A stretch of DNA of 64,000 bases, taken from the NCBI GenBank assembly GCA_014323835.1, contig JACONH010000001.1, positions 91,009 through 155,008 of the forward strand, read 5' to 3'. Under the pieces are notes generated by a model, which did no database searches, was not told the origin of the DNA, and saw only the letters and a list, made by a program, of their open reading frames with translations. A program made the position numbers and the translations under genes. Below are positions 2,933 to 64,000 of this stretch, in pieces. This stretch comes from Alphaproteobacteria bacterium GM202ARS2. Its GTDB lineage: Bacteria > Pseudomonadota > Alphaproteobacteria > GM7ARS4. The number at the start of each line of letters is the position of its first letter. Within the stretch, counting starts at the first letter, position 1.

Positions 2933-2933
2933 G

Positions 2934-3335: not shown

Positions 3336-3339
3336 GATA

Positions 3340-3645: not shown

Positions 3646-3657
3646 GATTTGCCTCGT

Positions 3658-26953: not shown

Positions 26954-27084
26954 AACCCGTCAACTCCTTGTTCGGTTTTTATCCATGCCCTTTTGTTTAT
27001 CCCCATCGTTATTGCCCCACTTTCTTGCCCTCACGCCTTTGCTATAAACGAAGATGCTCCGTCATGTCAAACAATAAACGCACG

Positions 27085-27155
27085 AGCGGGTGATGGGAAT
27101 CGAACCCACGTAACCAGCTTGGAAGGCTGGGGCTTTACCATTAAGCTACACCCGC
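27085..27155 (-). tRNA. trnG: tRNA-Gly (anticodon UCC)
   Basis: Reverse complement GCGGGTGTAGCTTAATGGTAAAGCCCCAGCCTTCCAAGCTGGTTACGTGGGTTCGATTCCCATCACCCGCT. Anticodon loop CTTCCAA; T-loop TTCGATT. Confidence 0.88.
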
Positions 27156-27170
27156 ATCCCTCCCTCACCA

Positions 27171-27188
27171 ATGTTTCACGTGAAACAT
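27171..27188. promoter_or_regulatory. Perfect 18-bp palindrome ATGTTTCACGTGAAACAT (isolated copy 1), followed by TTGACT
   Basis: Read directly from the sequence. Lies 16 bp from the tRNA-Gly 5' end, in the divergent tRNA-Gly/tuf-ybaN intergenic region. Confidence 0.6.
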
Positions 27189-27269: not shown

Positions 27270-27287
27270 ATGTTTCACGTGAAACAT
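27270..27287. promoter_or_regulatory. Perfect 18-bp palindrome ATGTTTCACGTGAAACAT (isolated copy 2), preceded by TAGTATATA
   Basis: Read directly from the sequence. Same 18-mer as at 27171 and as in the 60153-60374 array. Confidence 0.6.
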
Positions 27288-33929: not shown

Positions 33930-35648
33930 ATGCGTCAAATTTTTGCTGATATTTTAGCTCTGCGCCTTCATAAGCGTTATATCGTAGCGCCGCCCGACTT
34001 TAATCGTTGGTGGGTGCCGCCTGCGTCCATTGCCATTCATCTGTGTATTGGCTCGGTTTATGCGTGGAGTCTGTTTAATCCGCCCTTGTCACGTGCCCTC
34101 GGGGTCGTTGCTCCTGCTGCCAGCGATTGGCCCTTGGCGGATGTGGTGTGGATTTTCTCCGTTGCCATTGTGTGTTTGGGCTTTGCTGCTGCGTTTGCCG
34201 GTAAATGGCTCGAAGAAGTGGGGCCCCGTATGGTCGGCGTTGTCGCCGCATGCCTGTGGGGCGGCGGCTTTATTATTGGCGGATTTGGTATCCTCTATCA
34301 CCAGTTGTGGCTGGTGTATCTCGGCTACGGCGTTTTTGGCGGCTGCGGGCTCGGCTTGGGGTACGTCTCCCCTGTCAGCACCCTGATTCGCTGGTTCCCC
34401 GACAGGCGCGGCATGGCAACAGGCATGGCTATCATGGGATTCGGCGGCGGCGCCATGATTGGCGCACCATCCATCGAGGCTCTGCTCGCCTTCTATCAAC
34501 ATATACCCACGTATCTCGGCACAACCGATACCTTGACCCTCAGCACCATCGAAGGAATCCGCTACGCACAAAGTGCGAGTGGCACCCTAACGGAAGTCGT
34601 CCTCATCGGCGCCAAAGAAGCCGCTAACTTGACAACACCCCTTCAAACTGTCGCCCCGGGGGCTTATGTTGTCGGTACAGGCTCTACCGGGGCGGCGGCG
34701 ACATTCTTTACCTTCGGGGTCGTCTATTTCATTATCATGATTATCGCCGCGTTCTCGTATCGTGTGCCAGCAGAAGGCTGGCAGCCGAAAAATTGGCAGC
34801 CCCCTGACGAAAGTCAGGCAAAAAAACGCATGATGACGACACAGCACGTCCACATCGACCAAGCCCTCAAAACGCCGCAGTTCTATCTGTTATGGATTGT
34901 GCTGTGCTTTAACGTATCGGCTGGCATTGGCGTGCTCGGCGTTGCCAAGACCATGATGAGCGAAATCTTCGGCACAACCCTGCCCCATATTGTCGATGCT
35001 GCCTTTACCGCGCAGTATGTTTTGATGATTAGCGTCTTTAATATGGTTGGACGAGTCTTCTGGGCAAGCACCTCCGACTATATCGGACGTAAAGCCACGT
35101 ATATGATTTTCTTTACGCTCGGTATCCTTCTTTATTTGTCGATTCCCTATACGGCACAGCAAGTCAGCGTATCGCCGCATATCCAGTGGTTGGTGATGTT
35201 TTATGCTGCCACCATGATTATTTTTACGATGTATGGCGGTGGTTTTGCGACTATTCCTGCGTATCTTGCCGACATTTTTGGCACCCGTTACGTAGGCGGC
35301 ATCCACGGCAGATTGCTGACAGCGTGGAGCATGGCTGGCGTGCTGGGGCCTGTTGCGATAACGCAACTGCGCGAGCACACCCGTATTCAAGCCATAGAGT
35401 CGCTGGCAGAACGCATCGACCCCCAGCTGTTCTTGCAGACTTTTGGCCAAGCTATCGACCAGCTGCCCATTCTTATTGAGGCAAAAACTGTCACCATTGC
35501 TTCGCTGATGGAGATTGTGCCGATAGGGACGATTGACCCGTCGCCGACTCTCTATAATACGACGATGTATGCGATGGCTGGTTTGCTGGCGTTGGCTTGG
35601 ATAGCGAATGTTCTTGTGCGTCCGGTGCATGCCAAGCACCACATGTAA
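33930..35648 (+). CDS. MFS transporter, OFA-like family, paralogue 3 of 3
   Basis: 572 aa paralogue. Putative RBS TTAGGAG upstream. Confidence 0.8.
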   Translation: MRQIFADILALRLHKRYIVAPPDFNRWWVPPASIAIHLCIGSVYAWSLFNPPLSRALGVVAPAASDWPLADVVWIFSVAIVCLGFAAAFAGKWLEEVGPRMVGVVAACLWGGGFIIGGFGILYHQLWLVYLGYGVFGGCGLGLGYVSPVSTLIRWFPDRRGMATGMAIMGFGGGAMIGAPSIEALLAFYQHIPTYLGTTDTLTLSTIEGIRYAQSASGTLTEVVLIGAKEAANLTTPLQTVAPGAYVVGTGSTGAAATFFTFGVVYFIIMIIAAFSYRVPAEGWQPKNWQPPDESQAKKRMMTTQHVHIDQALKTPQFYLLWIVLCFNVSAGIGVLGVAKTMMSEIFGTTLPHIVDAAFTAQYVLMISVFNMVGRVFWASTSDYIGRKATYMIFFTLGILLYLSIPYTAQQVSVSPHIQWLVMFYAATMIIFTMYGGGFATIPAYLADIFGTRYVGGIHGRLLTAWSMAGVLGPVAITQLREHTRIQAIESLAERIDPQLFLQTFGQAIDQLPILIEAKTVTIASLMEIVPIGTIDPSPTLYNTTMYAMAGLLALAWIANVLVRPVHAKHHM

Positions 35649-37121: not shown

Positions 37122-39338
37122 ATGATGCGGATAGGGCCAATACAATCAACAGTTCTTTTATGCCTGCTTGTGCCGTTGCTTGCGGGCTTCAATAACCCTC
37201 TGGGAAGTGGCTTGCGTCCGCTTACGTCCACTGCTGTGACACCCACTTCTGAGGATGACAGCGTTGAGGAGAAGCCTTCTGCTGCGCAACAAGTGGATAA
37301 AGGTATCCCAGCCCGGCGCAAGTTTCGCTATAAGCGTCGCAAATTGCGTGTGCCTCGCTATCGTCCGCGTCCGCAGATTATGGCATCTCCGCTCAAAGCC
37401 CACGTTACCAAGCCAAAGACAATCAGCGGTATACACTATGACGATGTGGTTGCGCTGATGCACGCCGTCAAAAAAGAAGAATACAACGATGCCTATCGCT
37501 TGGCAAAAAAGATTAATGACCCCGTGCTGACCAGCTATGTTTTGTGGAATGGCTATCGCCTCTATTGGCTGAAGCATCCGCTAGACAAGCTGGAAGCGTT
37601 CATCGATGAGCATCGGCACTGGCCTGATATTGATAGGGTCATGATAGCCGCGGAACATGCCCTTGACTTGAAAGAGCATGAAGCCCACGAGGTATTGGCT
37701 TGGTTTTCTCGCTATCCGCCCATAAGTAATCTGGGTCATTTGAAGCGTCTCAATGCTTTGGGAAAAATGGATAAAAAGCAAGCCGAGCTATCTTACGCTC
37801 GCAAAATCTGGCGCGAGTATGACTTGATGCCGCAACACAAGGACTATTTTTTGCGCACGTATGCCCATGCTCTTTCTGATGAGGACTACCTCGTTCGACT
37901 ACAACGGCTGTTAGCCGAGGGGAATGCCCGAGATGTCAAAAACAAGATTAGTCAGATGCGCCCGCGCCTCCGCACCCAGCTCTATCGTCAGTGGCGCGCG
38001 GAACTGCCCCCGTTTGTTATCGGTCGGCTGATTGAGAACATGCCCTCCAGAGTTGTGGCAAAACACCCGCTGAGTGAGGCCCTCTTTGCCTTCCAAAAGA
38101 CCCGTGACTTCGAAGAAAGCTTCGATGCACTACAAGCCCTGCCCCACGCCGCCAACGACCACAAAGCTTGGTGGCAGGCTTATGAGGACTATATTCGTTT
38201 TCTCCTCTATGACGGCTACGTCGAGGAGGCTTATACCCTCGCCAAACAACACCGACAGGTCTGGAAAAAAGGCTTCTCCGAAGGAGAATGGCTCAGCGGA
38301 TGGATTGCTCTAAGCTTTCTCAATGACAGCTTATCGGCTTATCGTCACTTTGCCCACTTGTTTGATGAAGTCCACTCGAGTCTAGAGAAATCTCGAGCCG
38401 CCTATTGGACGTGGCGGTCTGCCCACGTCATGGGCGAGCGAGAGATTGCCCGTGAGTGGCTCAAAAAAGGGGCGCGTTATCCAACGACTCTCTACGGGCA
38501 GCTCTGTCGCGCCCAACTCAGCTGGAGCTACAAAGATATTTTTGTCGCGACCCCTCAGATCTCGCCGTTTGACCACCAGTCTTTCGATGCGGATCTAAAC
38601 GCCTTAAACCATGATGGGCTCCTTACGTTGCTCGGTTTTTTTGCGACCACCGATACTGTCGAGCAAGGGATGCCTTTTTTCCGCCATATGCTCTTTAAGC
38701 GTTCGACCAACGACCGCCAACGTGCCTACATCATTAACATGCTGATGCAGTTCGGTCATAGCGAGTATGCCGTCTATCTCAGCCGCAAGCTGGTCGAGCA
38801 AGGATACCCCGAACCACAAGGCGCGTACCCCATGATTAGCGATGACCACCTGCCCGCCTTAGGCATCGAAAAAGCCCTCGTGCTCAGCGTCATTCGACAA
38901 GAAAGCAACTTCATGGCCGTCGAAGCCGTCAGCCACGCCGGCGCCCTCGGATGGATGCAAGTCATGCCCGCAACCGCCGAATCCGTCACAAAAGACCTCA
39001 ATATTCCCTATTCGCAAACCCGCTTGCTCCACGACTACACCTATAACGTCACAATCGGCAGCTCGTATTTGCGCAGTCTCGCAGCACAATATGACAACTC
39101 TTATCCAATGATTCTTGCTGCCTATAATGCTGGCCCCAGTCGAGTGCGGGTATGGACACGCAAGTTCGGCGACCCCCGCCGCAACAATGTCAACAAAATC
39201 GACTGGATAGAAGCCATCCCCTTCTATGAAACCAGACACTATGTTCTCAAAGTGCTGTCGAACTTACAAGTGTATCGCCGTTTGCTGGCAGATTCGGACA
39301 AAAGCCCCCACCGCTTCAACACGTTTGGGGCCCCCTAA
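37122..39338 (+). CDS. slt: Soluble lytic murein transglycosylase (Slt70 family)
   Basis: The C-terminal SLT domain has the catalytic ES motif (VIRQESNFMAVEAVSHAGALGWMQVMPATA...AAYNAGPSRV) and a superhelical N-terminal region. Putative RBS GGTGGGAG precedes the ATG at 37122. Confidence 0.85.
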   Translation: MMRIGPIQSTVLLCLLVPLLAGFNNPLGSGLRPLTSTAVTPTSEDDSVEEKPSAAQQVDKGIPARRKFRYKRRKLRVPRYRPRPQIMASPLKAHVTKPKTISGIHYDDVVALMHAVKKEEYNDAYRLAKKINDPVLTSYVLWNGYRLYWLKHPLDKLEAFIDEHRHWPDIDRVMIAAEHALDLKEHEAHEVLAWFSRYPPISNLGHLKRLNALGKMDKKQAELSYARKIWREYDLMPQHKDYFLRTYAHALSDEDYLVRLQRLLAEGNARDVKNKISQMRPRLRTQLYRQWRAELPPFVIGRLIENMPSRVVAKHPLSEALFAFQKTRDFEESFDALQALPHAANDHKAWWQAYEDYIRFLLYDGYVEEAYTLAKQHRQVWKKGFSEGEWLSGWIALSFLNDSLSAYRHFAHLFDEVHSSLEKSRAAYWTWRSAHVMGEREIAREWLKKGARYPTTLYGQLCRAQLSWSYKDIFVATPQISPFDHQSFDADLNALNHDGLLTLLGFFATTDTVEQGMPFFRHMLFKRSTNDRQRAYIINMLMQFGHSEYAVYLSRKLVEQGYPEPQGAYPMISDDHLPALGIEKALVLSVIRQESNFMAVEAVSHAGALGWMQVMPATAESVTKDLNIPYSQTRLLHDYTYNVTIGSSYLRSLAAQYDNSYPMILAAYNAGPSRVRVWTRKFGDPRRNNVNKIDWIEAIPFYETRHYVLKVLSNLQVYRRLLADSDKSPHRFNTFGAP

Positions 39339-39387
39339 ACCCACCCTAGCCCCCTAAACCCACCCTAGCCCCCTAAACCCACCCTAG
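39331..39387. repeat. 3 x 19-bp perfect tandem repeat CCCCCTAAACCCACCCTAG. The first copy contains the slt stop codon
   Basis: Direct reading of the sequence. Sits between the convergent slt and TPR-SPOR genes. The minus strand is G-tract rich. Confidence 0.9.
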
Positions 39388-39401
39388 GCCCCCTCATCTT
39401 C

Positions 39402-45590: not shown

Positions 45591-46933
45591 ATGACTAAAC
45601 CTTTATTCGGCACGGACGGCATTCGAGGCGTTGCCAATAGTTCCCCCATCGACCCCTGCACGGTGCTCCATATTGCCATGGCAGCAGGTCACTGCTTCAT
45701 GAGCGGTAAGCACCGCCACCGAGTCATTATTGGCAAAGATACGCGTTTGTCGGGCTATATGCTCGAGCCATCTCTGGTGGCGGGCTTTACCGCAATGGGT
45801 ATGGAAGTCATCCTGGTTGGGCCCATGCCAACGCCGGCTATCAGCATGTTGACGCAAAGCATGCGAGGCGACCTCGGCGTCATGATTTCGGCATCCCATA
45901 ATCCCTATCACGACAATGGAATCAAATTTTTTGATTCGCAGGGCCATAAATTAAGCGATGCCCTACAAAAACGCATCGCCCAGTTGGTCGCCAACCAAGA
46001 CATGATGAGCATGCTTGCTCCGCCCGACCAACTGGGGCAAGCCAAGCGTCTCGAAGACGCCCGTGGACGCTACATCGAGTACGTCAAGTCCACCTTCGAT
46101 TCTGGCTTGAATTTGAGTCAACTCAAAATTGTCGTTGATTGTGCCAACGGTGCGACCTACAAGACCGCTCCGACTATTCTTTGGGAGCTGGGTGCCGATG
46201 TTGTGCCTATCCATCATGCCCCCAACGGCTACAACATTAACCGAGACTGTGGCGCGACCGCCCCCGAGTCCCTTGCCCGCGCCGTCGTCGAGCACAAAGC
46301 CGACCTCGGCATCGCCCTCGACGGCGACGGCGATAGAGTCATTATGACCGACGAAAACGGCACAATCTTCGATGGCGATTACATCCTTGCCCTCATCGCA
46401 CAAGATCTCTATCACAACAAAGCAAAACAAAAAAATGCCAAAAAGCCTTGTGTTGTCGGCACCATCGTCAGCAACGGCGGCTTGCAACGCTATCTCGATA
46501 GCATCGGCGTGCACCTCCAACGAGCCCCCGTAGGCGACCGACACGTCTTCCAAAACATGCAGCGTCACCACGCCGATATCGGCGGAGAAGCCTCCGGGCA
46601 CATTCTCTTTAAGAACTACGGGAGCACCGGCGACGGCATCGTCACCGCATTACAAGTCTGTGCCTCAATCATCCGCAAAAACAAGCCTGCCAGTGCGTGT
46701 TTTGCTCTTTTTGATAAGATTCCCCAAATGAATAAAAATATTCCCCTCAATGGCACGCCCCTCGCCAGCATAGAAAAAGACATCGACCACCTGAGAACAA
46801 CCCTAGGGGACTACGGCTTGCTGGTGGTGCGTCCCTCTGGCACCGAACCCTTTGTGCGCATCACCGCCAGTAGCTTCGATACCCAAGCCATGCAAAATGC
46901 CGTCGATCACATCGCCCAAAGACTCAGCGCACC

Positions 46934-46937
<4 letters not shown>
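45591..46937 (+). CDS. glmM: Phosphoglucosamine mutase
   Basis: MTKPLFGTDGIRGVAN; the active-site serine loop SASHNP is present. Confidence 0.93.
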
Positions 46938-49830: not shown

Positions 49831-51132
49831 CTAGCGTTCATAGTCAAACGTGTATTCTAGGGTGCCACCGATGCGTTTGCTTATCTCGTTCTCGTCATTT
49901 CTGATTTGCTGATAGCCGAGATGTAGACGCACCTGTTTGCCGACCCTATACCCTGCTGACATTCGAAAGGAGCCTTCGTTGTTGCCGCTTTGCCGATTAA
50001 CGTGGGTGTACTGCACCGCATAGAGCCAACGTTTGTCATAAAGCTGCAAAGCAATGGTGGTGAATTTGTGGTCGTTATTCGCCTCACCATCAAGAGAATC
50101 GATGCCAGCATACTCGAACACGATATGTCCTCTCGTTGCCCGAGAAAAACGATGCCCGTAATCTAAGGATAGCGACACGCTGTCCTCATCTTCGGCATCG
50201 GCGTCTTTTTCTGCCTTAGCTTGTTTGCTGTAGCCCAATCGGTAGCCGAGCTTACCAAAGACGTTTTCACCGCCTAGAGACAAAGCAAAAGAGCTCAAAT
50301 CCTCCGTATTGGCGGGTCCCCCATCGTTGAGACTACGATGCCCTCTTCGATAAAAGAGCGACTCACTAAACAAGGTTGTATCCGCAAAAAATGCCGATGC
50401 CTCGATGTCATGGTTGCCGAGATTGCGCGCGCCATCAAAAGACAACTTACCCCCTACGCCAATACGCTCACGGATTTCATATTCATGAACCGGCACATAA
50501 CCCGTAGCACCAACAAAACGATCTGGCGAAAAACCCACCGTCGGCGTAAATTTACCCACATACACCGCATACGTATCGTCATAACTATAAGTCAACCTTA
50601 AAGCCGCCAAAGAAACGGGATGATCTTGGAAAAAACTGTTGCGTGCACGTTCTTCTCCATGCTCGTCCTCATCTTCATGCCCGTGTTCATCGCCGTCTTC
50701 ATCACCATCTTCGTGGTGCTCTTCCTCTTCATGGTCGTTGCCACCACCATGCGCATGATCATGCCCTTGCGCAGCACCATCGAGAAAAATCTCGCCATCG
50801 ATAGACAAACGATGCTTGTTTTTCTCCCATAAACGCGCACCCCAATCCACATGACCATGAAGATAAAAGTCAACAATACGATCCTCTTCATGAGGAGCCG
50901 CCGTCACACCATCAAAGTGACCATTGAAATGACCATGAATAAATACAGCCTCGTCACCATGCCCTCCATGCCCCCCCCCGTGTCCATGGTCATCATGTCC
51001 CCCATGCCCCCCCCCATGGTCATGTCCCCCGTGTCCATGATTATCGTGTCCGCCTCCTGCTAAAACGGGCGTAGCCATAAGCCCCAACGTCACGCCTGCG
51101 AGCATGACAAAGTAACGCACAAAATAGCGCAT
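49831..51132 (-). CDS. Secreted His-rich/acidic metal-binding protein with probable beta-rich C-terminal domain
   Basis: The start MRYFVRYFVMLAGVTLGLMATPVLA (ATG 51130-51132, putative RBS GAGGAG) is a signal peptide. It is followed by HGHGGHDHGGGHGGHDDHGHGGGHGGHG and HEEEEHHEDGDEDGDEHGHEDEDEHGEE tracts. The C-terminal ~250 aa alternate in an OMP-like pattern. Confidence 0.7.
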   Translation of the reverse strand: MRYFVRYFVMLAGVTLGLMATPVLAGGGHDNHGHGGHDHGGGHGGHDDHGHGGGHGGHGDEAVFIHGHFNGHFDGVTAAPHEEDRIVDFYLHGHVDWGARLWEKNKHRLSIDGEIFLDGAAQGHDHAHGGGNDHEEEEHHEDGDEDGDEHGHEDEDEHGEERARNSFFQDHPVSLAALRLTYSYDDTYAVYVGKFTPTVGFSPDRFVGATGYVPVHEYEIRERIGVGGKLSFDGARNLGNHDIEASAFFADTTLFSESLFYRRGHRSLNDGGPANTEDLSSFALSLGGENVFGKLGYRLGYSKQAKAEKDADAEDEDSVSLSLDYGHRFSRATRGHIVFEYAGIDSLDGEANNDHKFTTIALQLYDKRWLYAVQYTHVNRQSGNNEGSFRMSAGYRVGKQVRLHLGYQQIRNDENEISKRIGGTLEYTFDYER

Positions 51133-51224
51133 GAGCGTATCTCCTCTATGTATGTAATAAGCCCCCTCTTCCAATCAATGAGTCTATCACAAATACTACA
51201 TGTATGCAAGTGTTTTTTTTTGAA

Positions 51225-51242
51225 AATACTATATATAGTATT
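51225..51242. promoter_or_regulatory. Perfect 18-bp palindrome AATACTATATATAGTATT, ~95 bp upstream of the His-rich protein start. An additional half-site AATACTA lies at 51192-51198
   Basis: Read directly from the sequence. Candidate operator for a dimeric (possibly metal-responsive) regulator. Confidence 0.55.
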
Positions 51243-51285
51243 GTAAGGTGAACATTCTTTTATTGTGCGTGTCGGTTCTCACGCT

Positions 51286-51471
51286 TTATTCGCCGCCGCC
51301 ACCGCCGTCGCCCCCACCGTCGCCACCGTCGTCGCCATCCCCATCGCCGTTGTGACCGTTATCTCCTCCCCATGCGTTTGCTATGATTTTACGCCCTAAA
51401 GCGAAGCCTAAAATCAGCACCAAAAAAATGAAAAATAATCCATGATTCCATCTCCTCTTTATGGGAATCAA
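51286..51471 (-). CDS. Hypothetical 61-aa single-TM peptide with Gly/Asp-rich tail (GDGDGDDGGDGGGDGGGGGE)
   Basis: ORF with a hydrophobic segment LFFIFLVLILGFALG. The tail is low-complexity (GCC/GTC repeats), so it could be spurious. Confidence 0.3.
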   Translation of the reverse strand: MIPIKRRWNHGLFFIFLVLILGFALGRKIIANAWGGDNGHNGDGDGDDGGDGGGDGGGGGE

Positions 51472-57055: not shown

Positions 57056-57898
57056 ATGCCAACACGTATGTTGCGCTTTTTTTTATCTCCTCGTCTTGCC
57101 CCTATCGTGGTGCTGTGCGGTGCCCTCCTTGCGTTTCTGGTGCTGAACCCCTCAACAGAGGAAAACGACTCGCTTATTCTTGTGGCAACCACGTCCACAG
57201 ATAACTCTGGGCTTCTCGAATTTCTTCTGCCCCATTTTGAGGACAAATACGCCATCAACGTGCGTGTGTTGACGACGGGAAGCGGGCAAGCCCTCAACAT
57301 TGGCAGAAATGGCGATGCCGATGTTCTGCTTGTCCATGATCCCCATGCCGAGCAGCAGTTTGTGCGTGCTGGTCATGCTCGTTTTCATCATGCCATCATG
57401 CACAACGACTTTATTCTTGTGGGGCCCCGCCATGACCCCTGTGCCATCAAAGGAGCGAGCAACCTCCGCCAAGCCATGACTCTTTTTCTTGCCTCGTGCG
57501 CGCCCTTCATCTCACGAGGCGATAACAGCGGCACACACACCAAAGAAAAAGAACTCTGGCACAACGCCACTATCACCAACCACGAGGCACAACCATGGTA
57601 CCGCCAAAGCGGAAGCGGTATGGGGGCAACCCTCAACATCGCCGCCAGCTTGGATGCTTACACCTTGTCCGACCGCGCAACATTCACCAGCTTCATGAAC
57701 AAACAAAATCTCGTTGTCCTTTACCAAAAAGACCCGCACCTCGATAACGTCTACAGCCTGATTCTCCCCAAAAAGCATCGCCACAGCACCACCACGCCCG
57801 CTCAACAACTGGCACAATGGCTCACCAGCCCAGAAGGTAAGGATACCATCAATGCCTTCACCATTCATAACCAACAGGTCTTCTTTGCGACGCCATGA
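57056..57898 (+). CDS. tupA: Tungstate/molybdate-type ABC substrate-binding protein (TupA/WtpA-like); start 57056 or 57068
   Basis: LVATTSTDNSGLLEFLLPHFE...LTTGSGQALNIGRNGDADVLLVHDP matches the TupA family pattern. Signal peptide present. Confidence 0.75.
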   Translation: MPTRMLRFFLSPRLAPIVVLCGALLAFLVLNPSTEENDSLILVATTSTDNSGLLEFLLPHFEDKYAINVRVLTTGSGQALNIGRNGDADVLLVHDPHAEQQFVRAGHARFHHAIMHNDFILVGPRHDPCAIKGASNLRQAMTLFLASCAPFISRGDNSGTHTKEKELWHNATITNHEAQPWYRQSGSGMGATLNIAASLDAYTLSDRATFTSFMNKQNLVVLYQKDPHLDNVYSLILPKKHRHSTTTPAQQLAQWLTSPEGKDTINAFTIHNQQVFFATP

Positions 57899-58719
57899 CC
57901 CCAGACTCATTCGATAAACACGCCGTCTACCTCGTTTTAGATGGAGGATTAGGCAATCAAATGTTCCAATATGCTTTTGCCCTTGCCCTCGCTCAGCATA
58001 AAAAAGCACGACTCTATTTGACCCTTTATCGTTTTTATAAAAACAACCGACGAAACTATCTTCTTGGTGGCTTTGACCTAAAAGCGTTCGTTATCTTAGA
58101 AAAATTTTTCTCCCCCTTCCCATACACCTTCGAACCGCACTATCACTATTGGCATGGCTGGCGCGATGTCGCTCTGCCGTGTCGCTTGCTGGGCTACTGG
58201 CAGTCGGAACGCTATTTTCAAGACATCAAAGAGCAAATTCACACTATTTTTGCCCTCAATCGATTCCGCAATCACGAAAACACCGACATCTTCCGCCAAA
58301 TCCAACAAGCCGAACACAGCGTCGGCGTCCATATCCGCCGCGGCGATTATCTGGTGAAAAAACATCTTCAACACCACGGTATCATGTGTGCCGACTATTA
58401 CGAAAAAGCCCGCACCCTCATAGAAGCGCGCTATCCTCAGGCGACCTTTTTTATTTTTTCAGACGAGCCCAAACGAGCCTATCAAGAGCTCGGACACTGG
58501 AGTCGCACGCACTTTGTCGTCCACAACAACAACCCCTACCAAGAGATGATGCTTCTGAGCGCCTGTCACCACCAAATTATCGCCAACAGCTCCTTCAGTT
58601 GGTGGGCGGCTTGGCTGAATCGCTATCCCGATAAAAAAGTGATTGCCCCGCACCAATGGTTTCTTGATAAAACATTGGATACGACAGACCTCATTCCTTC
58701 AGGATGGCTTAAGCTATGA
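57895..58719 (+). CDS. futC: Glycosyltransferase family 11, alpha-1,2-fucosyltransferase-like
   Basis: LDGGLGNQMFQYAFA (GT11 motif I) and HIRRGDYL (motif II). Confidence 0.8.
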   Translation: MTPDSFDKHAVYLVLDGGLGNQMFQYAFALALAQHKKARLYLTLYRFYKNNRRNYLLGGFDLKAFVILEKFFSPFPYTFEPHYHYWHGWRDVALPCRLLGYWQSERYFQDIKEQIHTIFALNRFRNHENTDIFRQIQQAEHSVGVHIRRGDYLVKKHLQHHGIMCADYYEKARTLIEARYPQATFFIFSDEPKRAYQELGHWSRTHFVVHNNNPYQEMMLLSACHHQIIANSSFSWWAAWLNRYPDKKVIAPHQWFLDKTLDTTDLIPSGWLKL

Positions 58720-60149
58720 CAACAGGGACGATTTACCCCGTTATTCTGTGTGGTGGACAAGGCACGCGCCTGTGGCCCCTGTCTCGTTACAATCATCCCA
58801 AGCAGTTCCTTGCTCTGTATACGGACGTAGCCCTGATTGTCGAGACCGCCCGGCGTTTTACCTCCGCGGCTTATGCTCCTTTGACCTTTGTTTGTCACCA
58901 AGAGCACCATGGCTTGCTGATAGCCACGCTCAAAGAGCATCTCACGGGTGCGCGTATCCTTCTCGAGCCTGTCGCTCGCAATACCGCGGCGGCGATTGCC
59001 GTTGCCACCCTTGCTCTTCAGCAAGCCCTTGACCCAAGCGATGACTCGACTCTTGTGTTCATGCCTGCAGACCATGTTTTTCCGCACCCAGCCCCGTTGC
59101 ATGATGCTATCAAAAAAGCCCAAGCCATCGCTGCCCACGACCATATTGTGACCTTTGGTATCACGCCCGATTCACCGCAGACGGGCTATGGTTACATTCA
59201 AAAAGGCACGCCCGTAAACAACCACCCAGCGAGCTATCACATCCAGCAGTTCCATGAGAAGCCGTCTCACGCCCAAGCTGACGCCTATATCGCCAGCCAA
59301 GATTTTTTCTGGAATTCGGGCCTTTTTTGTGCACGCCCCGCCACACTTGTGCGGGAATTCCAGCAGCATGCCCCTGATACGCTACGTCATGCCGAGCAAA
59401 GCCTAAAACAAGCAACGACACACCAAAACACGTATACCCTTGCCAAAGACCCTTACGGCTGTATCTCGCCCCAGCCCTTCGACCAAGCCGTCATGGAAAA
59501 AACCAGCAAGGGAGTCGTCATACCCCTTGACACCCCATGGAGCGACATCGGCGACTGGCAAAGCCTCTGGCAGATGAAACAAAAAGACCCACAGGGTAAC
59601 GTCCTGAAAGGACACACAACCGCCTCTGATACCCAAAACAGCCTCATTTACAGCACAGACAATAAACGCACGGTCGCTATCGGCATCAAAGACACCGTCA
59701 TCGTCAACAGCGACGATGCCGTTCTCGTCGCCAAAACGTCCATGACGCACCACATCAAGCCCCTTCTCGACAGCTTAACCGACAACAAGCAGTCGTACCT
59801 ACAGGCAAAAGAAGACCACAGACCATGGGGGTCGTATCGAATCATCGACCAAGGAGAAGGCTATCTCGTCAAACATATTACAGTCCATCCCAACGGGATT
59901 TTGTCGCTCCAATACCACCACCACCGCAGCGAGCACTGGACCGTCGTGCAAGGCGTTGCCTTCGTCACTCGAGAGGACGAAACCTTCCAACTCCGTGCCA
60001 ATCAATCCACCTATATTCCCCAGAAAGCCAAACATCGACTCGAAAACCGCAGCAAAAAAACCCTCAAACTCATCGAAGTGCAAATCGGCAAACACCTACG
60101 AGAAGATGATATTGTCCGCCTCGATGATGTCTATGGACGAGCAAAATAA
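58716..60149 (+). CDS. manC: Mannose-1-phosphate guanylyltransferase / mannose-6-phosphate isomerase (bifunctional ManC/CpsB type)
   Basis: IYPVILCGGQGTRLWPLSR nucleotidyltransferase N-terminus and C-terminal cupin; 477 aa. Confidence 0.9.
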   Translation: MTTGTIYPVILCGGQGTRLWPLSRYNHPKQFLALYTDVALIVETARRFTSAAYAPLTFVCHQEHHGLLIATLKEHLTGARILLEPVARNTAAAIAVATLALQQALDPSDDSTLVFMPADHVFPHPAPLHDAIKKAQAIAAHDHIVTFGITPDSPQTGYGYIQKGTPVNNHPASYHIQQFHEKPSHAQADAYIASQDFFWNSGLFCARPATLVREFQQHAPDTLRHAEQSLKQATTHQNTYTLAKDPYGCISPQPFDQAVMEKTSKGVVIPLDTPWSDIGDWQSLWQMKQKDPQGNVLKGHTTASDTQNSLIYSTDNKRTVAIGIKDTVIVNSDDAVLVAKTSMTHHIKPLLDSLTDNKQSYLQAKEDHRPWGSYRIIDQGEGYLVKHITVHPNGILSLQYHHHRSEHWTVVQGVAFVTREDETFQLRANQSTYIPQKAKHRLENRSKKTLKLIEVQIGKHLREDDIVRLDDVYGRAK

Positions 60150-60152
60150 AAA

Positions 60153-60374
60153 ATGTTTCACGTGAAACATCGCGCATAAAAAAAATTGTTTCGCGCGAAA
60201 CATCGCGCATAAAAAAAATTGTTTCACGTGAAACATTGTGACAGAAAAAAAATTGTTTCTCGTGAAACATTTTGACAGGACAATAAAAATTGTTTCACGT
60301 GAAACATCGCGCGTAAAAAAAATTGTTTCTCGTGAAACATCGCGCATAAAAAAAAATTGTTTCACGTGAAACAT
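60153..60374. repeat. Seven tandem units (period 33-37 bp) of the 18-bp palindrome [A/T]TGTTTC[A/G/T]CG[T/C]GAAACAT plus an A7-9-containing spacer. They fill the whole manC-fcl intergenic region
   Basis: Unit starts 60153, 60186, 60219, 60253, 60290, 60323, 60357. The palindrome is perfect in copies 1, 3, 5 and 7. Copy 2 has a CGCGCG centre. Copies 4 and 6 have CTCGTG. The spacers are CGCGCAT-A(n)-T or T(G)TGACAG-A(n). Confidence 0.95.
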
Positions 60375-60395
60375 TTTGACGGGAGAAGTTTGGGC

Positions 60396-61355
60396 ATGTC
60401 AGCTGAACCATATAGTCTTGCGGGCAAGCGTCTGTGGGTTGCGGGTCATACCGGCATGGTCGGTGCGTCTCTTGTGCGTCGTTTGCAGCGTGAGGATGTT
60501 GAGATTTTAACGGCGACCCGTCAGCAGTTGGATTTGACGTGCCAGCGTGATGTCGAGCAGTGGATAGGTGACAACAAACCGGATGGTATTTTTCTTGCGG
60601 CGGCGAAGGTTGGTGGTATTCATGCCAACGATACGTTGCCTGCTCAGTTTTTGTATGACAATCTTGCTATTCAGAGTAACGTTATTCATTCTGCTTATCG
60701 TCATGGTGTTGCTCGGTTGCTTTTTCTTGGTTCTTCGTGCATTTATCCTCGTGCTTGTCCGCAACCGATGCGAGAGGAGCATCTTTTAACGGGGCCCCTT
60801 GAGGCGACCAATCAGTGGTATGCCATTGCCAAGATTGCCGGTTTGAAGTTATGTCAAGCGTATAGCAAGCAATATGGCTGTTCTTATATTGCGACGATGC
60901 CGACCAATCTTTATGGGCCTGGTGACAACTATCATCCGTTGCATAGTCATGTGCCGGCGGCGTTGCTTCGGCGGTTCCATGAAGCCAAGCAGGCGCAAGC
61001 GGCGCGGGTTGTCGTCTGGGGTAGCGGCAAGCCCTTACGAGAATTTCTGCATGTGGATGATTTAGCCGAGGCGTGCATCTTTTTGATGAAGCAGACTGCT
61101 CATGCTGAGCCGGTCAACATTGGCACGGGTAAAGAAATATCGATTCGAGCCTTTGCCGAGACAGTGGCGCGTATTGTTGGTTATAGTGGTTCTATCGAGT
61201 TTGATAACACGAAGCCTGATGGCTCGCCGCGCAAGTTACTCGATGTCAGCCGTATGCGCGCCCTCGGCTGGACAAGCACCATAGACCTGCAAGACGGCTT
61301 GCAAAATGCTTATCAGTGGTTCATAGATAATCAAGACACTTTACGTAGCGTATAA
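60396..61355 (+). CDS. fcl: GDP-L-fucose synthase (GDP-4-keto-6-deoxymannose 3,5-epimerase/4-reductase)
   Basis: The start MSAEPYSLAGKRLWVAGHTGMVGAS has putative RBS GGGAGAAG upstream. SDR fold with conserved YxxxK (WYAIAK). The upstream part of the listed ORF (60357-) runs through the repeats. Confidence 0.9.
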   Translation: MSAEPYSLAGKRLWVAGHTGMVGASLVRRLQREDVEILTATRQQLDLTCQRDVEQWIGDNKPDGIFLAAAKVGGIHANDTLPAQFLYDNLAIQSNVIHSAYRHGVARLLFLGSSCIYPRACPQPMREEHLLTGPLEATNQWYAIAKIAGLKLCQAYSKQYGCSYIATMPTNLYGPGDNYHPLHSHVPAALLRRFHEAKQAQAARVVVWGSGKPLREFLHVDDLAEACIFLMKQTAHAEPVNIGTGKEISIRAFAETVARIVGYSGSIEFDNTKPDGSPRKLLDVSRMRALGWTSTIDLQDGLQNAYQWFIDNQDTLRSV

Positions 61356-61358
61356 GCC

Positions 61359-62393
61359 ATGAAAACAGCTCTTATTACCGGCATCACGGGGCAGGATGGT
61401 GCTTATCTTGCCGAGTTTCTTCTGAATAAAAACTATCGAGTCCACGGCATCAAAAGGCGGTCATCTTCGTTCAATACGGGCCGTATCGACCATCTCTATA
61501 AGGATTTACATAACAAAAACGTCGACTTTGTGCTTCACCACGGCGATATGACGGACGCAACCAACCTGATTCGTCTGGTGCAGGAGACTCAACCTGACGA
61601 AATCTATAATCTTGCTGCCCAGAGTCACGTCCACGTCAGCTTCGAGACCCCCGAGTATACGGCTCAAGCGGATGCTTTAGGCACGTTGCGGTTGTTGGAA
61701 GCCGTACGTATTCTCGACAGGACGCAGAATCTGCGGTTCTATCAAGCCTCCACGTCAGAAATGTATGGCAATCCCAGCCAAACGCCACAAAACGAACAAA
61801 CGCCTTTTTATCCGCGCTCGCCTTACGGGGCTGCCAAACTGTATGCTTATTGGATCACCGTCAACTACCGCGAGGCTTACGGCATGCACGCCTCCAATGG
61901 TATTCTCTTTAACCACGAAAGTCCGATTCGAGGCGAGACGTTCGTTACCCGCAAGATTACCCGTGCGGTTGCTTCGATTCACCATAACAAACAAGAGTGT
62001 TTGTGGCTCGGCAACATTGACGCCAAAAGAGATTGGGGACACGCCAAAGAATATGCTGAGGGGATGTGGCTGATGCTCCAGCAGGATACGCCCGACGACT
62101 ATGTTCTTGCCACCGGGCAGATGTATGCCGTCAGGCAGTTCATCGAGTGTGCTTTTGCCGAAATCGGACAAAAAATAACGTGGCAGGGACAAGGCAAAAA
62201 TGAAGTCGGCATCGATACGAACAGCGGCACCACTCGAGTGCGTATCGACCCACGCTATTTTCGCCCGACAGAAATCGATACCCTGTGCGGCGACGCCAGT
62301 AAAGCACGCAAAAAACTCAACTGGCACCCTAAAACCACCTTCGAGCAACTCGTCAAAGAAATGGTGCATGCCGATATAAAAAATCTATCATGA
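61359..62393 (+). CDS. gmd: GDP-mannose 4,6-dehydratase
   Basis: [22 protein letters not shown]...ASTSEMYG...[10 protein letters not shown], a canonical Gmd. Confidence 0.93.
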
Positions 62394-63538
62394 AGGAAGA
62401 CTCACCATCACAGAAGCTCGCTGCCCTCATGTTTTTTCACCGTCAAACGCCCAAAAAGAAAGTTTGCCTTGTGACTGACTCGTATTGTTATGCCTTGCAC
62501 CGACAGACGCCCAACAATGATGGGGTATGGAAGACGATTCGGGTCTCGTTCAATAACGAGAAAGGTTGCTCGTGGCTATGCGTCTATGATACAAACCAAC
62601 CTTCTTACTGGCTCACCACGATCCCGAAGCATCGCCGTATTCTTGTTATCATAGAACCAAAAGAGATTTTTCACTATTCACCCTCTTGTCTGGCTCAATA
62701 CGGCACTGTTATCAGCCCTTACCCTCGCCCCTCTTCTTACAAGGGACAGTGGCTCAATAAGCCCATCTTATTTCCTTGGATCTATGGCTATAAAGAATAT
62801 GAGCCCCTCTCTGAGACGATGCTATGGCAGGGAATCTGCCAAAGCAAACCCCACAAAACAAAAACCCTATCGGTCATATTCTCGAAAAAATCCCATAGCC
62901 CAATGCAAGTCAAACGCACACAATTCATCCAAGCTTTGAAGCAAGAACTCGGCAACCAGCTGGATATATTTGGCAGAAATAACACCTACATCCCTAAAGA
63001 GAAGGGGATTGACCCCTATCGCTATCATCTCGTTATAGAAAATGGAACGGGACCCCATTTTTGGAGCGAAAAACTGGCGGATTGTTATCTTGGCGAAGCT
63101 TATGCCATCCACGCCGGCTGTTCCAACCTACACGATTACTTTCCTCGCGAGGCGTATACGTCCATCGATATTTTTAATGTCCCGTCAGCCATTCAAAAAA
63201 TTAAAGAGGTCATTGCTTCTGACGTGTGGCAAAAAAATCGACCCCATATCCTCGAAGCCAAACGGCGCGTTATGGAAAACAACCAACTCTTTCCTGTGTT
63301 AGAGAGCATTATCCGGTCGGCACCTCAAAGCCCCGAAAGCCCCGACGACCGCCCCCTCCCTCAGCCCGTTGCCCTAGAGACATGTGTCTCGTTACTAAAA
63401 ATGCCTCTATTCTACCCTTCTAAAAAGCCACGCCCTCAAAAATACTTTTCCCTCAGCTATGCGAGACGCAGACTCTCGACCATACGGAACAGCATCACAA
63501 AGCGTCTGCCTTTCTTTAATGGCAAGGACAGCGTGTAA
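62390..63538 (+). CDS. GT10-like alpha-1,3/4-fucosyltransferase-family glycosyltransferase, paralogue A
   Basis: [36 protein letters not shown] resembles the GT10 FucT motif (Y-x-[LV]-x-[FI]-EN-[SG]-x3-[FY]-x-[ST]-EK). ATGA overlap with gmd. Confidence 0.6.
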
Positions 63539-63620
63539 CCCAATAATGAACATCGTTGCCTTTCTCAAAGAAATCGTCTATCACATCCTACCATTGAGGT
63601 ATTGAAAAGTCCAACCCACC

Positions 63621-64000
63621 ATGTCCAAACGCCATCAGCCCAGACGTATCGATGTCTGTCTTGCCTCTTTGTATATCTATGATGCGTGGCACCGCCAAAC
63701 GCCCAACGATGACTATATCTGGGGCTCGACACATTTTTCCTTCAATAACGAGAAAGGGTGTTCGTGGTTGTGTGTTTTTGGCGAGCCCCCCGAGGACTGG
63801 CGCACAATAATTCCTCACCCTCGTCGTATCGCCATCATCGCCGAACCCCCATCGATCGAAACATACGTCGGTGGCTATCTCAACCAATTTGGTATCGTTA
63901 TAAGTCCTTATAAAAAACCTTTATCCTATCGAGGCCAGTGGCACCGCTCGCCACCTTACATATCTTGGTATTACGGCTTGAAGAGGAGCAACCCAGAGAA
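63621..64000 (+). CDS. GT10-like fucosyltransferase-family glycosyltransferase, paralogue B (N-terminal part; continues past the window end)
   Basis: The N-terminal ~125 aa are clearly paralogous to 62390-63538 (HRQTPN[ND]D..W....[13 protein letters not shown]...IP.HRRI.II.EP...GQW). Confidence 0.55.
   Translation, partial: MSKRHQPRRIDVCLASLYIYDAWHRQTPNDDYIWGSTHFSFNNEKGCSWLCVFGEPPEDWRTIIPHPRRIAIIAEPPSIETYVGGYLNQFGIVISPYKKPLSYRGQWHRSPPYISWYYGLKRSNPE

Follow-up and report, generated by a model that had tools for sequence, protein, structure and literature searches.

The window, that is, the whole stretch of 64,000 nucleotides analysed here, comes from the alphaproteobacterial metagenome-assembled genome GM202ARS2 (Ca. 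Methylospongiales), whose host is the sponge Lamellodysidea herbacea. Toward its end lie contiguous open reading frames on the plus strand for a TupA-like protein, a GT11-family enzyme, ManC, Fcl, Gmd and two GT10-family enzymes. The gene content proposed in the initial annotation is real: the ORFs lie where it had placed them, and the GT11, ManC, Fcl, Gmd and GT10 products all score above the cut-offs of their families. The tupA gene placed upstream of the cluster is there as a TupA-like neighbour (57056..57898, + strand, start as in the JGI gene call), a periplasmic oxyanion-binding protein with 122 bits to PF12849, but its 193 bits to NF041772 (TupA) fall under the equivalog cut-off of 400; the stop codon of this gene overlaps the start of the next one in an ATGA, and a tupA neighbour is also found in the relative L002. 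The GT11-family fucosyltransferase, predicted to be alpha-1,2-specific (57895..58719, +, 274 aa), reaches 94.7 bits with Glyco_transf_11 (PF01531; cut-off 23.9), and contains the motifs GGLGNQMFQYAF (aa 17-28), HIRRGDY (146-152), FIFSDE (186-191) and NSSFSWWAAWL (231-241). It has more than 8000 relatives, and an identical protein has already been named alpha-1,2-fucosyltransferase by NCBI.

The start of manC (58716..60149, +) overlaps the GT11 stop; the product is a bifunctional mannose-1-phosphate guanylyltransferase / mannose-6-phosphate isomerase (TIGR01479, 511 bits vs 373) with the Pfam domains NTP_transferase, MannoseP_isomer and Cupin_2. The gap between manC and fcl is filled by seven tandem copies of a palindrome (60141..60374, without strand), predicted to be ParB-binding parS centromere sites with the core TGTTTCACGTGAAACA. 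Fcl, the GDP-L-fucose synthase (60396..61355, +, 319 aa; NF047922, 512.7 bits vs 500), has its ATG preceded by a GGGAGA ribosome-binding site; a longer, TTG-started ORF from 60357 begins within a parS site and is unlikely to represent the true start. Gmd, the GDP-mannose 4,6-dehydratase (61359..62393, +; TIGR01472, 603.5 bits vs 415; PF16363, 527 bits), follows after 3 nt. By the scores of these curated models, ManC, Gmd and Fcl make up a de novo GDP-L-fucose route, as had been claimed, with the GT11 and GT10 enzymes adjoining. ATGA overlaps occur at the tupA/GT11, GT11/manC and gmd/GT10 junctions. The window contains no phosphomannomutase gene; its sole PGM/PMM-family gene scores as GlmM.

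GT10 paralogue 1 (62390..63538, +) clears the Glyco_transf_10 (PF00852) threshold by just 2 bits (26.0 vs 23.9). Its start is uncertain, since the ORF of 382 aa compares with an NCBI call of 355 aa. Paralogue 2 (63621..64000, +) reaches the window end with its first 126 codons; the full gene (361 aa, L001:11232-12317, ending at window-equivalent 64706) scores 44.4 bits with the same model. When the profile of the family is compared with the PDB, only GT10 structures are retrieved (2nzw at 2.6e-12, 8d0o at 6e-12, also 9s6a and 7yro), and with the AF2 model of paralogue 1 (pLDDT 86.8) the top 12 Foldseek matches in the PDB are all GT10 (12/12). R176, N218 and K228 (paralogue 1 numbering), which are among the positions that do not vary across the 28 aligned family sequences, align with R202, N246 and K256 of FUT9; N218, E227 and K228 align with N240, E249 and K250 of H. 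pylori FucT. By their family assignments, the GT11 and the tandem GT10-family enzymes, the latter predicted to be inverting GT-B enzymes, carry the donor-binding residues of fucosyltransferases. No sequence alignment with H. pylori FucT or FUT9 could be obtained for the N-terminal (acceptor) domain; E89, the candidate catalytic base, does not vary within the family, yet it could not be matched by alignment to Glu95 (H. pylori FucT) or Glu137 (FUT9).

Two statements of the initial annotation about these enzymes are artefacts of the window edge. The two GT10 paralogues had been said to share only their N-terminal ~125 aa, an appearance produced by the cut at residue 126 of paralogue 2: the full-length proteins align end to end with 46% identity, with stronger conservation in the C-terminal donor domain. 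Likewise, the count of three fucosyltransferases is too low because the cluster goes on past the window with at least two further GT10 paralogues and two sulfotransferase-domain genes (in the continuing contig, a sulfotransferase-like gene followed by two more GT10 paralogues). The idea that the paralogues diverged in acceptor specificity survives the loss of its original basis: among the five GT10 paralogues known in GM202ARS2, mean identity is 46% in the N-domain vs 62.5% in the C-domain. With 59-60% identity, the L002 orthologue of paralogue 1 resembles it more than do its paralogues within GM202ARS2 (46-57%), and the duplications are therefore old. The relatives have 6-7 copies, and 78 of 80 other genomes with the same GT10 clade have a single one. 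In other genomes this clade, which is common among bacteria of soil and sediment, has gmd no more than 10 kb away in 17-18/80 loci and a GT11 gene no more than 10 kb away in 18/80, a neighbourhood which, together with the GDP-fucose genes, fits a fucosylated glycan.

The sulfotransferase-like proteins contain an RSGGTLL P-loop and a VRHGADTFKS motif. Profiles of the sulfotransferase domain retrieve only sulfotransferases from the PDB at E < 0.03 (CurM ST at 9e-4, then 5.8e-7; TPST1), and 26/30 of the wider relatives match Pfam Sulfotransfer_3; the proteins themselves score just under that threshold (24.1, 25.7, 22.5 and 19.6 vs 27). Their C-terminal domain of ~250 aa has no detectable family, and the structural model is poor (pLDDT 51). 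Among 5.8 billion proteins, just 10 are related to the full-length form. A C-terminal ...SIKKRLPF tail is common to GT10s and sulfotransferase-like proteins, suggesting a shared localisation.

The GC and GC3 of the cluster are within the range of housekeeping genes, and the order tupA-GT11-manC-fcl-gmd-GT10 is kept in two relatives (L002, L205) at ~60% protein identity; both observations speak against an "island" of foreign origin. Overall, we consider it likely that the locus is an operon-like cluster of the chromosome, passed on by vertical descent, for GDP-fucose synthesis and multiple fucosylation, with a lineage-specific parS insertion. According to the family assignments, the isomerase domain of ManC would supply mannose-6-phosphate and its guanylyltransferase domain GDP-mannose; Gmd would dehydrate GDP-mannose to GDP-4-keto-6-deoxymannose, and Fcl would epimerise and reduce this intermediate to GDP-L-fucose. 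The fucosyltransferases have no signal peptide, and the GT10s have a basic C-terminal tail (...ITKRLPF in paralogue 1); their site of action is probably the inner membrane, on its cytoplasmic side, with a lipid-linked or LPS-linked oligosaccharide as the acceptor. Each of the old, diverged GT10 paralogues probably fucosylates a distinct acceptor position. Sulfation of the product by the adjacent sulfotransferase-domain proteins may follow, and the outcome would be a multiply fucosylated, possibly sulfated cell-surface glycan. The initial annotation had pointed to the sequence beyond 64000 as a place to look for assembly and export genes. Neither the window, nor the continuation, nor the complete clusters of the relatives contain an initiating transferase, a flippase, a polymerase, a ligase or an ABC exporter.

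Several alternatives must be weighed against this reading. One is that the product is a poly-fucosylated, sulfated glycan in which several GT10s act on different positions, perhaps on fucose itself, and the sulfotransferases add sulfate. Such a glycan would be similar to marine sulfated fucans or to the glycans, rich in fucose and sulfate, of the sponge host. The alternation of GT10 and sulfotransferase-domain genes in three related organisms, the common tail, and the maintenance of old paralogues with a more diverged acceptor domain are all consistent with this alternative, and the sulfotransferase assignment is supported transitively, although the proteins on their own remain below the Pfam threshold. 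Sponge aggregation-factor glycans carry, according to two reports (PMC8271808, PMC7828597), a sulfated, fucose-bearing epitope, GlcNAc3S-beta-1,3-Fuc. However, the sulfate could go to a molecule different from the fucosylated glycan, and polymerase or export genes are not found nearby; such a product is possible, if on balance unlikely.

The initial annotation favoured a different product, host-like H/Lewis epitopes on O-antigen, as in Helicobacter pylori, with the GT11 adding alpha-1,2-fucose to galactose and the GT10s alpha-1,3/4-fucose to the GlcNAc of LacNAc. H and Lewis determinants are indeed the work of two families, GT11 and GT10 (PMC12717137), both of them present in the cluster. The same GT10 clade also occurs in a GT10-GT25-GT11 module of Rhizobium sp. 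CF080, and a GT25 gene adjoins the GT10 gene in 9/80 loci. GT25 is the family of the LPS beta-1,4-galactosyltransferases; yet neither GT25 nor any other galactosyl- or GlcNAc-transferase was found in the window or in L001-L003, L002, L084 and L205, which leaves no LacNAc-building enzyme there. Moreover, phase-variation homopolymer tracts like those of the H. pylori fut genes are absent from the neighbourhood, the GT10 acceptor domain is not alignable with that of H. pylori FucT or FUT9, and four to seven GT10 paralogues plus sulfotransferases exceed the needs of a Lewis epitope. Its host is a sponge, and Lewis antigens are not documented for sponges in the literature examined; in the soil and sediment bacteria in which the clade is common, host mimicry is not expected. 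A specific H/Lewis product is thus not supported, and we regard it as doubtful.

The repeat array was rightly recognised, but not as what it is. Instead of an internal separator of a glycan island, its seven copies (at 60154, 60187, 60220, 60254, 60291, 60324 and 60358, spaced 33-37 bp) are tandem parS units, where chance would give 0.01 per window, and their core equals the published parS consensus (PMC7022226, Table 1). Four units match TGTTTCACGTGAAACA perfectly, two have 1 mismatch, and one has 2 symmetric mismatches. The array is absent from the manC-fcl junction of L002 and L205, in which manC overlaps fcl. We therefore read it, from its sequence, as a lineage-specific insertion of tandem parS, predicted to be ParB loading sites, outside the glycan machinery; it breaks the one junction of the cluster without translational coupling. 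It is highly improbable that these units are instead intrinsic terminators, a REP/MITE-like repeat, or an operator array regulating the fucose genes. This possibility is raised by the position of the array between two genes of one pathway, by the build of each unit, a hairpin preceded by an A-rich run (a T run on the minus strand), and by the lack of parA or parB among the window ORFs scanned. Against it, the 16-bp core is identical to a conserved centromere consensus, and the papers found for its 14-bp core GTTTCACGTGAAAC deal with ParB/parS, the paralogue Noc, oriC and chromosome organisation, and not with terminators. The RNA hairpin is weak (just -4.7 to -5.3 kcal/mol) and was not reported by a terminator scan; no Rfam family scores above threshold. 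Conservation between the array units and two distant copies of the palindrome at 27172 and 27271 is limited to the palindrome itself, the flanks being different, and independent tandem parS arrays are present in other metagenomic contigs, those of at least 5 sites in only 4/120 metagenomic loci that have a close pair.

Finally, it is hardly credible that the GT10s act on proteins, either as O-fucosyltransferases like animal FUT10 and FUT11, which modify EMI domains (PMC11949838), or as secreted effectors that fucosylate host molecules: despite this precedent within GT10, the type III secretion system encoded by the organism (PMC7313196) and the lack of adjacent glycan-assembly genes, translational coupling ties the GT10s to genes of nucleotide-sugar synthesis in an operon of housekeeping type, their basic tails are C-terminal and membrane-anchor-like while a type III signal is N-terminal, and in free-living bacteria the clade is widely distributed, with neighbours of the LPS type (GT25, O-acetyltransferases). 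Under the preferred reading, that of a multiple-fucosylation cluster with a parS insertion, the pathway is the ordinary part of the locus, and its interest resides in the expansion of the GT10 paralogues, their sulfotransferase partners, and the insertion.

These features can be compared with known systems. The Lewis system of H. pylori consists of FutA and FutB (GT10), FutC (GT11), a GT25 galactosyltransferase, and a supply of GDP-fucose via Gmd and the Fcl homologue WbcJ. It shares with the present cluster the two fucosyltransferase families, the donor pathway, the GT-B fold, the donor-binding Asn and Glu-Lys residues, and a basic C-terminal tail, which in H. pylori FucT is a membrane anchor. 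However, sequence similarity to FucT is limited to ~75 residues of the donor domain, and while the Lewis genes of H. pylori are scattered, here there is one operon, with 4-7 GT10 paralogues and interleaved sulfotransferase-domain genes, but without a nearby LacNAc-building transferase or phase-variable tracts. Enterobacterial GDP-fucose modules for O-antigen or colanic acid (manC-manB-gmd-fcl-gmm plus a GT11 such as WbsJ or WbwK) have in common with it the ManC, Gmd and Fcl equivalogs and an adjoining GT11 gene of the alpha-1,2-fucosyltransferase type; they differ in that manB, gmm, wzx, wzy and wzz are not found in or beside the cluster, and in that GT10 paralogues are present here. The Rhizobiales GT10-GT25-GT11 module (Rhizobium sp. 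CF080, L039) has a GT10 of the same clade (~33% identity) beside a GT11, but this GT10 is single, and the module includes a GT25 galactosyltransferase-family gene and O-acetyltransferases and no sulfotransferase-domain genes. With PAPS-dependent sulfotransferases (CurM ST, TPST, Sulfotransfer_3) the neighbours share a 5'-PSB-like RSGGTLL loop and a 3'-PB-like R-x7-S motif, while the fused or following family-less domain of ~250 aa and the GT10-type C-terminal tail set them apart.

As for the array, chromosomal parS sites are usually spread over kilobases, whereas here seven lie within 220 bp with a period of 33-37 bp, inside an operon. Multiple sites in one region are nevertheless a feature of chromosomal centromeres, the model chromosomes listed in PMC7022226 having 2-22 of them. 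Chromosomal parS has the consensus TGTTNCACGTGAAACA; the core of 16 bp found here is the same as in the parS of Hyphomonas neptunium, and it matches the B. subtilis and Caulobacter consensus. In its architecture the array is like sopC of the F plasmid, a tandem-repeat plasmid centromere of 12 x 43 bp.

The genes listed by the initial annotation were all found, on the plus strand and where it had placed them: a GT11 gene (57895-58719; PF01531, 94.7 bits against a cut-off of 23.9), manC (58716-60149; TIGR01479, 511 bits against 373), fcl (60396-61355; NF047922, 512.7 bits against 500), gmd (61359-62393; TIGR01472, 603.5 bits against 415) and two GT10-like genes, at 62390-63538 and from 63621 onward, whose products score 26.0 and 44.4 bits with PF00852 (cut-off 23.9), the second being scored on its full length. 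Gmd and Fcl, the two enzymes of the de novo GDP-L-fucose pathway, both exceed their equivalog thresholds. A phosphomannomutase (ManB) was not found in the window, whose sole gene of the PGM/PMM family (45591-46937) scores as GlmM (525 bits). The motifs quoted earlier for the GT11 protein are located at residues 17-28 and 146-152; the latter, HIRRGDY, represents the conserved HxRRxD and is followed by FIFSDE and NSSFSWWAAWL. Comparison with solved structures gave no meaningful match for this protein; based on the family model and the HxRRxD motif it is a predicted alpha-1,2-fucosyltransferase, the name that NCBI already gives it, and it has more than 8000 relatives. ATGA overlaps occur at the tupA/GT11, GT11/manC and gmd/GT10 junctions, fcl and gmd are 3 nt apart, and the only separated junction is that between manC and fcl (246 bp).

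Since the first GT10-like protein is marginal on Pfam, its GT10 assignment was tested further. A database search recovered 39 relatives, of which most carry PF00852; those in the MAG have no annotation beyond hypothetical. A family profile of 28 sequences matches GT10 chains alone in the PDB, with E-values from 2.6e-12 to 1.4e-6; the matches include H. pylori FucT (2.6e-12) and human FUT9 (6.2e-12), and also Arabidopsis FUT11 and mango FUT13. With the AlphaFold2 model of the GT10 protein (pLDDT 86.8, pTM 0.81) the same four enzymes occupy ranks 1 to 12 of the Foldseek search of the PDB (TM ~0.43-0.51), and the other GT-B families among the solved structures rank behind them. R176, E217, N218, E227 and K228 are among the columns invariant in 28/28 aligned sequences of the family. 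HMMER alignments place R176, N218, E227 and K228 on Asn240, Glu249 and Lys250 of H. pylori FucT, which have roles in donor binding, and on Arg202, Asn246 and Lys256 of FUT9. The FUT9 residues contact the donor diphosphate or stabilise the transition state (PMC12717137). A candidate for the catalytic base is the Glu of an invariant Glu89-Pro90 pair that follows a beta-strand of the N-domain; the N-domains of the solved GT10 enzymes (Glu137 in FUT9) did not align by sequence. Overall, membership of the GT10-like genes in the GT10 family is supported by the profile matches in the PDB, by the matches of the predicted structure and by the invariant donor-site residues.

The apparent restriction of similarity between the two paralogues to their N-terminal ~125 residues, from which a divergence of acceptor specificity had been proposed, is an artefact of the window end, which cuts the second gene: its full form, read from the source contig, has 361 residues and is 46% identical to paralogue 1 over 365 columns. 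Mean identity among the five paralogues of GM202ARS2 is 46% in the N-terminal (acceptor) domain, 62.5% in the C-terminal (donor) domain and 24% in the tail. The evidence is thus opposite to the basis originally offered for the divergence of acceptor specificity, although the idea itself agrees with a set of old paralogues having a more diverged N-domain, and differing acceptor specificities would fit the pattern of identities. Paralogue 1 resembles the corresponding protein of a relative (59-60%) more closely than the other paralogues of GM202ARS2, so the duplications are old and have been maintained. The fifth paralogue of the MAG, GDA50_08805, is located away from the cluster.

How common this arrangement is was assessed by a rarity scan, in which 575 relatives of the GT10 clade were confirmed, none above 39% identity, and gene neighborhoods were taken from the 80 best loci. 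The clade is widespread (Rhizobiales, Desulfovibrio, Bacteroidales, Planctomycetes and others). Of the 80 best loci, 17-18 have gmd, and 18 a GT11 gene, at no more than 10 kb from GT10: for this reason the pairing of GT10 with GT11 and GDP-fucose genes is to be considered recurrent and ordinary. A single GT10 copy is found in 78 of these loci and a sulfotransferase-like gene in 0 of 80; the tandem expansion of GT10 with sulfotransferase partners is lineage-specific.

These partners become visible just past window position 64000. On the 3' side of paralogue 2 there is a gene with a sulfotransferase-like N-terminal domain. The JGI metagenome contig that encodes the 382-aa product of 62390-63538 (Ga0189853_1000006, 139,323 bp; a segment of it is referred to here as L001, whose position 11611 equals window position 64000) stops 2.3 kb past the first GT10 gene, inside the sulfotransferase-like gene, where there is an exact repeat of 89 bp; a contig of 3974 bp (L003) shares the 89 bp and carries the remainder of the gene, together with two more copies of GT10 and another sulfotransferase-like gene. 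The repeat is common to both sulfotransferase-like paralogues, and the JGI assembly is broken there. The NCBI locus tags GDA50_00870, 00875, 00880, 00890, 00895 and 00900, all on one contig of 160,805 bp, agree with the joined cluster. In two syntenic loci of related organisms (L002 and L205, from one ENA assembly) the order tupA-GT11-manC-fcl-gmd-GT10 is kept, and 6-7 GT10 copies are interleaved with sulfotransferase-like genes; the hisZ-like, serC-like, DASS symporter and tupA flanks are conserved in L002, and the L205 cluster terminates at a ZnuBC-like transporter. On a 632-kb contig of a related organism from the same sample (L084:1-14072), a sulfotransferase-like gene and a GT10 gene are embedded in a run of eleven or more tandem GT2 paralogues, and massive tandem amplification of glycosyltransferases seems to be a trait of the lineage. 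The term "island" used initially, if taken to mean foreign DNA, does not agree with these data: the cluster genes have GC of 0.47-0.53 and GC3 of 0.50-0.59, inside the range of the housekeeping genes rpoB, rpoC, tuf, fusA, ftsH and thiC, and synteny is kept in two relatives. A foreign origin was therefore rejected.

The sulfotransferase-domain genes (L001:12337-13500; L003:1-692 and 2853-3974) encode proteins in which this domain is fused to a C-terminal domain of ~250 residues. Their own scores with Sulfotransfer_3 (PF13469) are 19.6-25.7, below the cut-off of 27; the motifs include an RSGGTLL loop (5'-PSB) and VRHGADTFKS, of the form R-x7-S (3'-PB). All PDB matches of the family profile with E < 0.03 are sulfotransferases (CurM ST, 9e-4; TPST1, 0.013). 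A full HMMER search against 1.84 billion representative sequences gave 915 relatives, mostly of ~280 residues and covering the sulfotransferase-like domain alone; 26 of the 30 wider relatives sampled match Sulfotransfer_3 (best 5.7e-11), and a profile of these wider relatives matches CurM ST with an E-value of 5.8e-7. The full two-domain architecture was recovered in ten relatives among 5.8 billion proteins; no family match was found for the C-terminal ~250-aa domain, and the AlphaFold2 model of the two-domain protein is poor (pLDDT 51). The GT10 paralogues and the sulfotransferase-like proteins, which belong to unrelated families, end alike in a basic ...W..SIKKRLPF (window 63494-63514; L001:11232-12317; also in L002 and L205). 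The C-terminus of H. pylori FucT anchors to the membrane, and by analogy the shared motif is read as a membrane-association tail; it may be a signal for membrane targeting or for complex assembly. The GT2 paralogues of L084 have a different tail, likewise basic and amphipathic.

Proteins identical or nearly identical to those encoded here are deposited under Alphaproteobacteria bacterium GM202ARS2, a MAG of 1.83 Mb from the sponge Lamellodysidea herbacea, assigned to the new order Ca. Methylospongiales; the paper that describes it makes no mention of fucose, fucosyltransferases or sulfotransferases (PMC7313196). The rest of the window contains ribosomal-protein, rpoBC and tuf operons. The gene upstream of GT11 is TupA-like: it encodes a PBP_like_2 protein that scores 193 with the TupA model, below the cut-off of 400. 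Uptake of sulfate for the sulfotransferases through this protein and the DASS symporter was considered and dropped, because the binding protein matches tungstate TupA best and a TupB-like permease is nearby; tungstate-type uptake fits the metal needs of a methylotroph. Three other features of the window were recorded. Three tandem paralogues of a 572-aa MFS transporter (30397-32115, 32140-33858 and 33930-35648, plus strand; the first two 84% identical) are a further tandem gene amplification within a small genome. On the minus strand, 49831-51174 is an ORF of 447 residues with no Pfam match, strongly enriched in His, Gly, Asp and Glu in its N-terminal third (HGGHDHGGGHGGHDDHGHGG...) and beta-barrel-like in its C-terminal part, with several short tandem repeats in the DNA at 50649-51348; it may encode a metal-binding outer-membrane protein. 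Finally, a 19-bp tandem repeat (GCCCCCTAAACCCACCCTA; 39330-39394, 3.4 copies, 97% identity) is located between the convergent ends of an SLT-domain gene and a TPR/SPOR gene.

What had been described as a palindromic array between manC and fcl (60141-60374) turned out to be a series of seven tandem parS sites. The core TGTTTCACGTGAAACA occurs at 60154, 60187, 60220, 60254, 60291, 60324 and 60358, against a chance expectation of 0.01 per window. It is perfect in four of the units and has a single mismatch in two others, while unit 2 (TGTTTCGCGCGAAACA) shows two symmetric substitutions that keep the palindrome. The sites match the 16-bp parS palindrome TGTTNCACGTGAAACA, which is the form of parS in B. 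subtilis and C. glutamicum, while the alphaproteobacterium Hyphomonas neptunium has exactly TGTTTCACGTGAAACA; chromosomes carry 2-22 parS sites, nearly all in the origin domain (PMC7022226, Table 1). The papers listed by a full-text literature search with the 14-bp core concern ParB/parS, the paralogue Noc, oriC or chromosome organisation. Two more perfect TGTTTCACGTGAAACA sites, 99 bp apart (27172-27187 and 27271-27286), bring the total in the 64-kb window to nine; they are intergenic, directly upstream of the minus-strand tRNA-Gly gene (27084-27155) and of the tuf operon, and have the palindrome alone in common with the array units. TRF detects in the array a higher-order period of 104 bp, equal to three units, in 2.4 copies, which suggests that the array grew by duplication of a three-unit block.

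A role of the array as a terminator or REP element was discarded: the core is that of parS, the RNA hairpin of an array unit is weak (-4.7 to -5.3 kcal/mol), the terminator scan does not flag the array, and terminator and promoter scans yield no more than chance. Rfam has nothing above threshold for the array, the sole match being a sub-threshold miRNA. Genes for ParA and ParB were not found in the window, and the GC skew is negative throughout it, with no switch; a location near the origin and binding by ParB are putative, and we consider it very improbable that the array is something other than a centromere. In both L002 and L205 manC overlaps fcl, and no parS-like sites occur in the ~21 kb of these syntenic relatives: by this comparison the array is an insertion specific to the lineage, placed at the single operon junction that is not coupled. 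In metagenomes, closely spaced parS pairs proved to be common (at least 120 loci) and clusters of five or more sites rare (4/120 among the matches listed); one cluster of at least five sites has a similar period of ~34 bp and unrelated flanks. A tandem seven-site array inside an operon is an uncommon layout for a chromosomal centromere, and provides a natural setting in which to ask whether transcription is disturbed by the loading of ParB.

These results can be combined in the following scheme. Their families identify ManC, Gmd and Fcl as the enzymes that supply GDP-L-fucose; the GT11 and GT10 genes, whose products have intact donor sites, would be co-transcribed with the genes for its synthesis. 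The transferases would modify a lipid-linked or LPS-linked glycan from the cytoplasmic side, with the diverged GT10 paralogues decorating different positions. Sulfation by the sulfotransferase-domain proteins may follow, and the cell would then carry a surface glycan that is multiply fucosylated and possibly sulfated. We regard this general reading of an operon-like fucosylation cluster as probable. Its core, GDP-fucose synthesis with GT11 and GT10, is textbook, and GT11 is already named publicly; the points of note are the lineage-specific expansion of GT10 with sulfotransferase partners, the C-terminal tail common to both families, and the presence of seven tandem parS sites within the operon. 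The context is also noteworthy, because at least five old GT10 paralogues are found in a 1.8-Mb sponge-associated genome, and up to seven in its relatives, as compared to one in other bearers of the clade, and because the sulfotransferase-domain proteins with which they are interleaved scarcely occur outside this lineage.

The sub-case of this general reading in which the product is a sulfated poly-fucosyl glycan is tentative, and on balance rather unlikely. Equally speculative is a broader proposal, to which we give a small chance: a genome-reduced, T3SS-bearing sponge associate would use its enlarged set of diverged GT10 enzymes and its lineage-restricted sulfotransferase fusions to build a poly-fucosylated, sulfated surface glycan similar to marine sulfated fucans or to the sulfated, fucose-rich glycans of the sponge, and the parS array in the operon, as the main ParB loading site of the chromosome, could couple ParB occupancy to the expression of the downstream fucose genes. 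If true, this would be a bacterial route to sulfated fucose-rich glycans and a candidate determinant of host mimicry or recognition. A sulfated, fucose-rich product would bear on the recognition and tolerance of associates by a sponge with sulfated, fucosylated adhesion glycans, and would point to enzymes for fucosylated and sulfated oligosaccharides.

The cluster had initially been proposed to make a glycan resembling H or Lewis antigens. The gene calls and the logic of the pathway hold; the Lewis/H label is speculation. Two features that would favour it, a LacNAc-building GT25 and phase-variable tracts, were sought in the vicinity without success, although enzymes that build the acceptor may be encoded in another part of the genome. 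A module DUF268-GT10-GT25-GT11-acyltransferase, with a member of the GT10 clade, does occur in Rhizobium sp. CF080 (L039:9050-14883), and GT25 adjoins GT10 in 9 of the 80 best loci; by family, the enzymes of this module and of the eight other loci, from soil- or plant-associated Rhizobiales, are those expected for a Lewis-type epitope. The Rhizobium GT25, used as a tblastn query, gave no match in the window, L001-L003 or L084; the Pfam gene tables for L001, L002, L003 and L205 show no GT25 or other non-fucosyl glycosyltransferase in the cluster; and homopolymer runs in the GT11 and GT10 genes stay below 8 bases (A7 at most). A specific Lewis/H product is therefore more doubtful still than a sulfated poly-fucosyl one. 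Fucosylation of proteins or effectors is the least probable reading of all, and hardly credible.

With respect to known systems, the fucosylation cluster of GM202ARS2 is set apart from the H/Lewis system of the H. pylori type, which combines a LacNAc-building enzyme, of a kind not seen near this cluster, with its fucosyltransferases, and whose fut genes have phase-variable homopolymer tracts that the GT11 and GT10 genes of GM202ARS2 lack. Neither the gene tables for L001, L002, L003 and L205 nor the ORFs of 200 aa or longer at 28-57 kb of the window include an initiating transferase, a flippase (Wzx), a polymerase (Wzy), a WaaL ligase or an ABC exporter; in this respect the cluster differs from those for O-antigen and capsule, in which an initiating transferase is accompanied by Wzx/Wzy/WaaL or by an ABC exporter.
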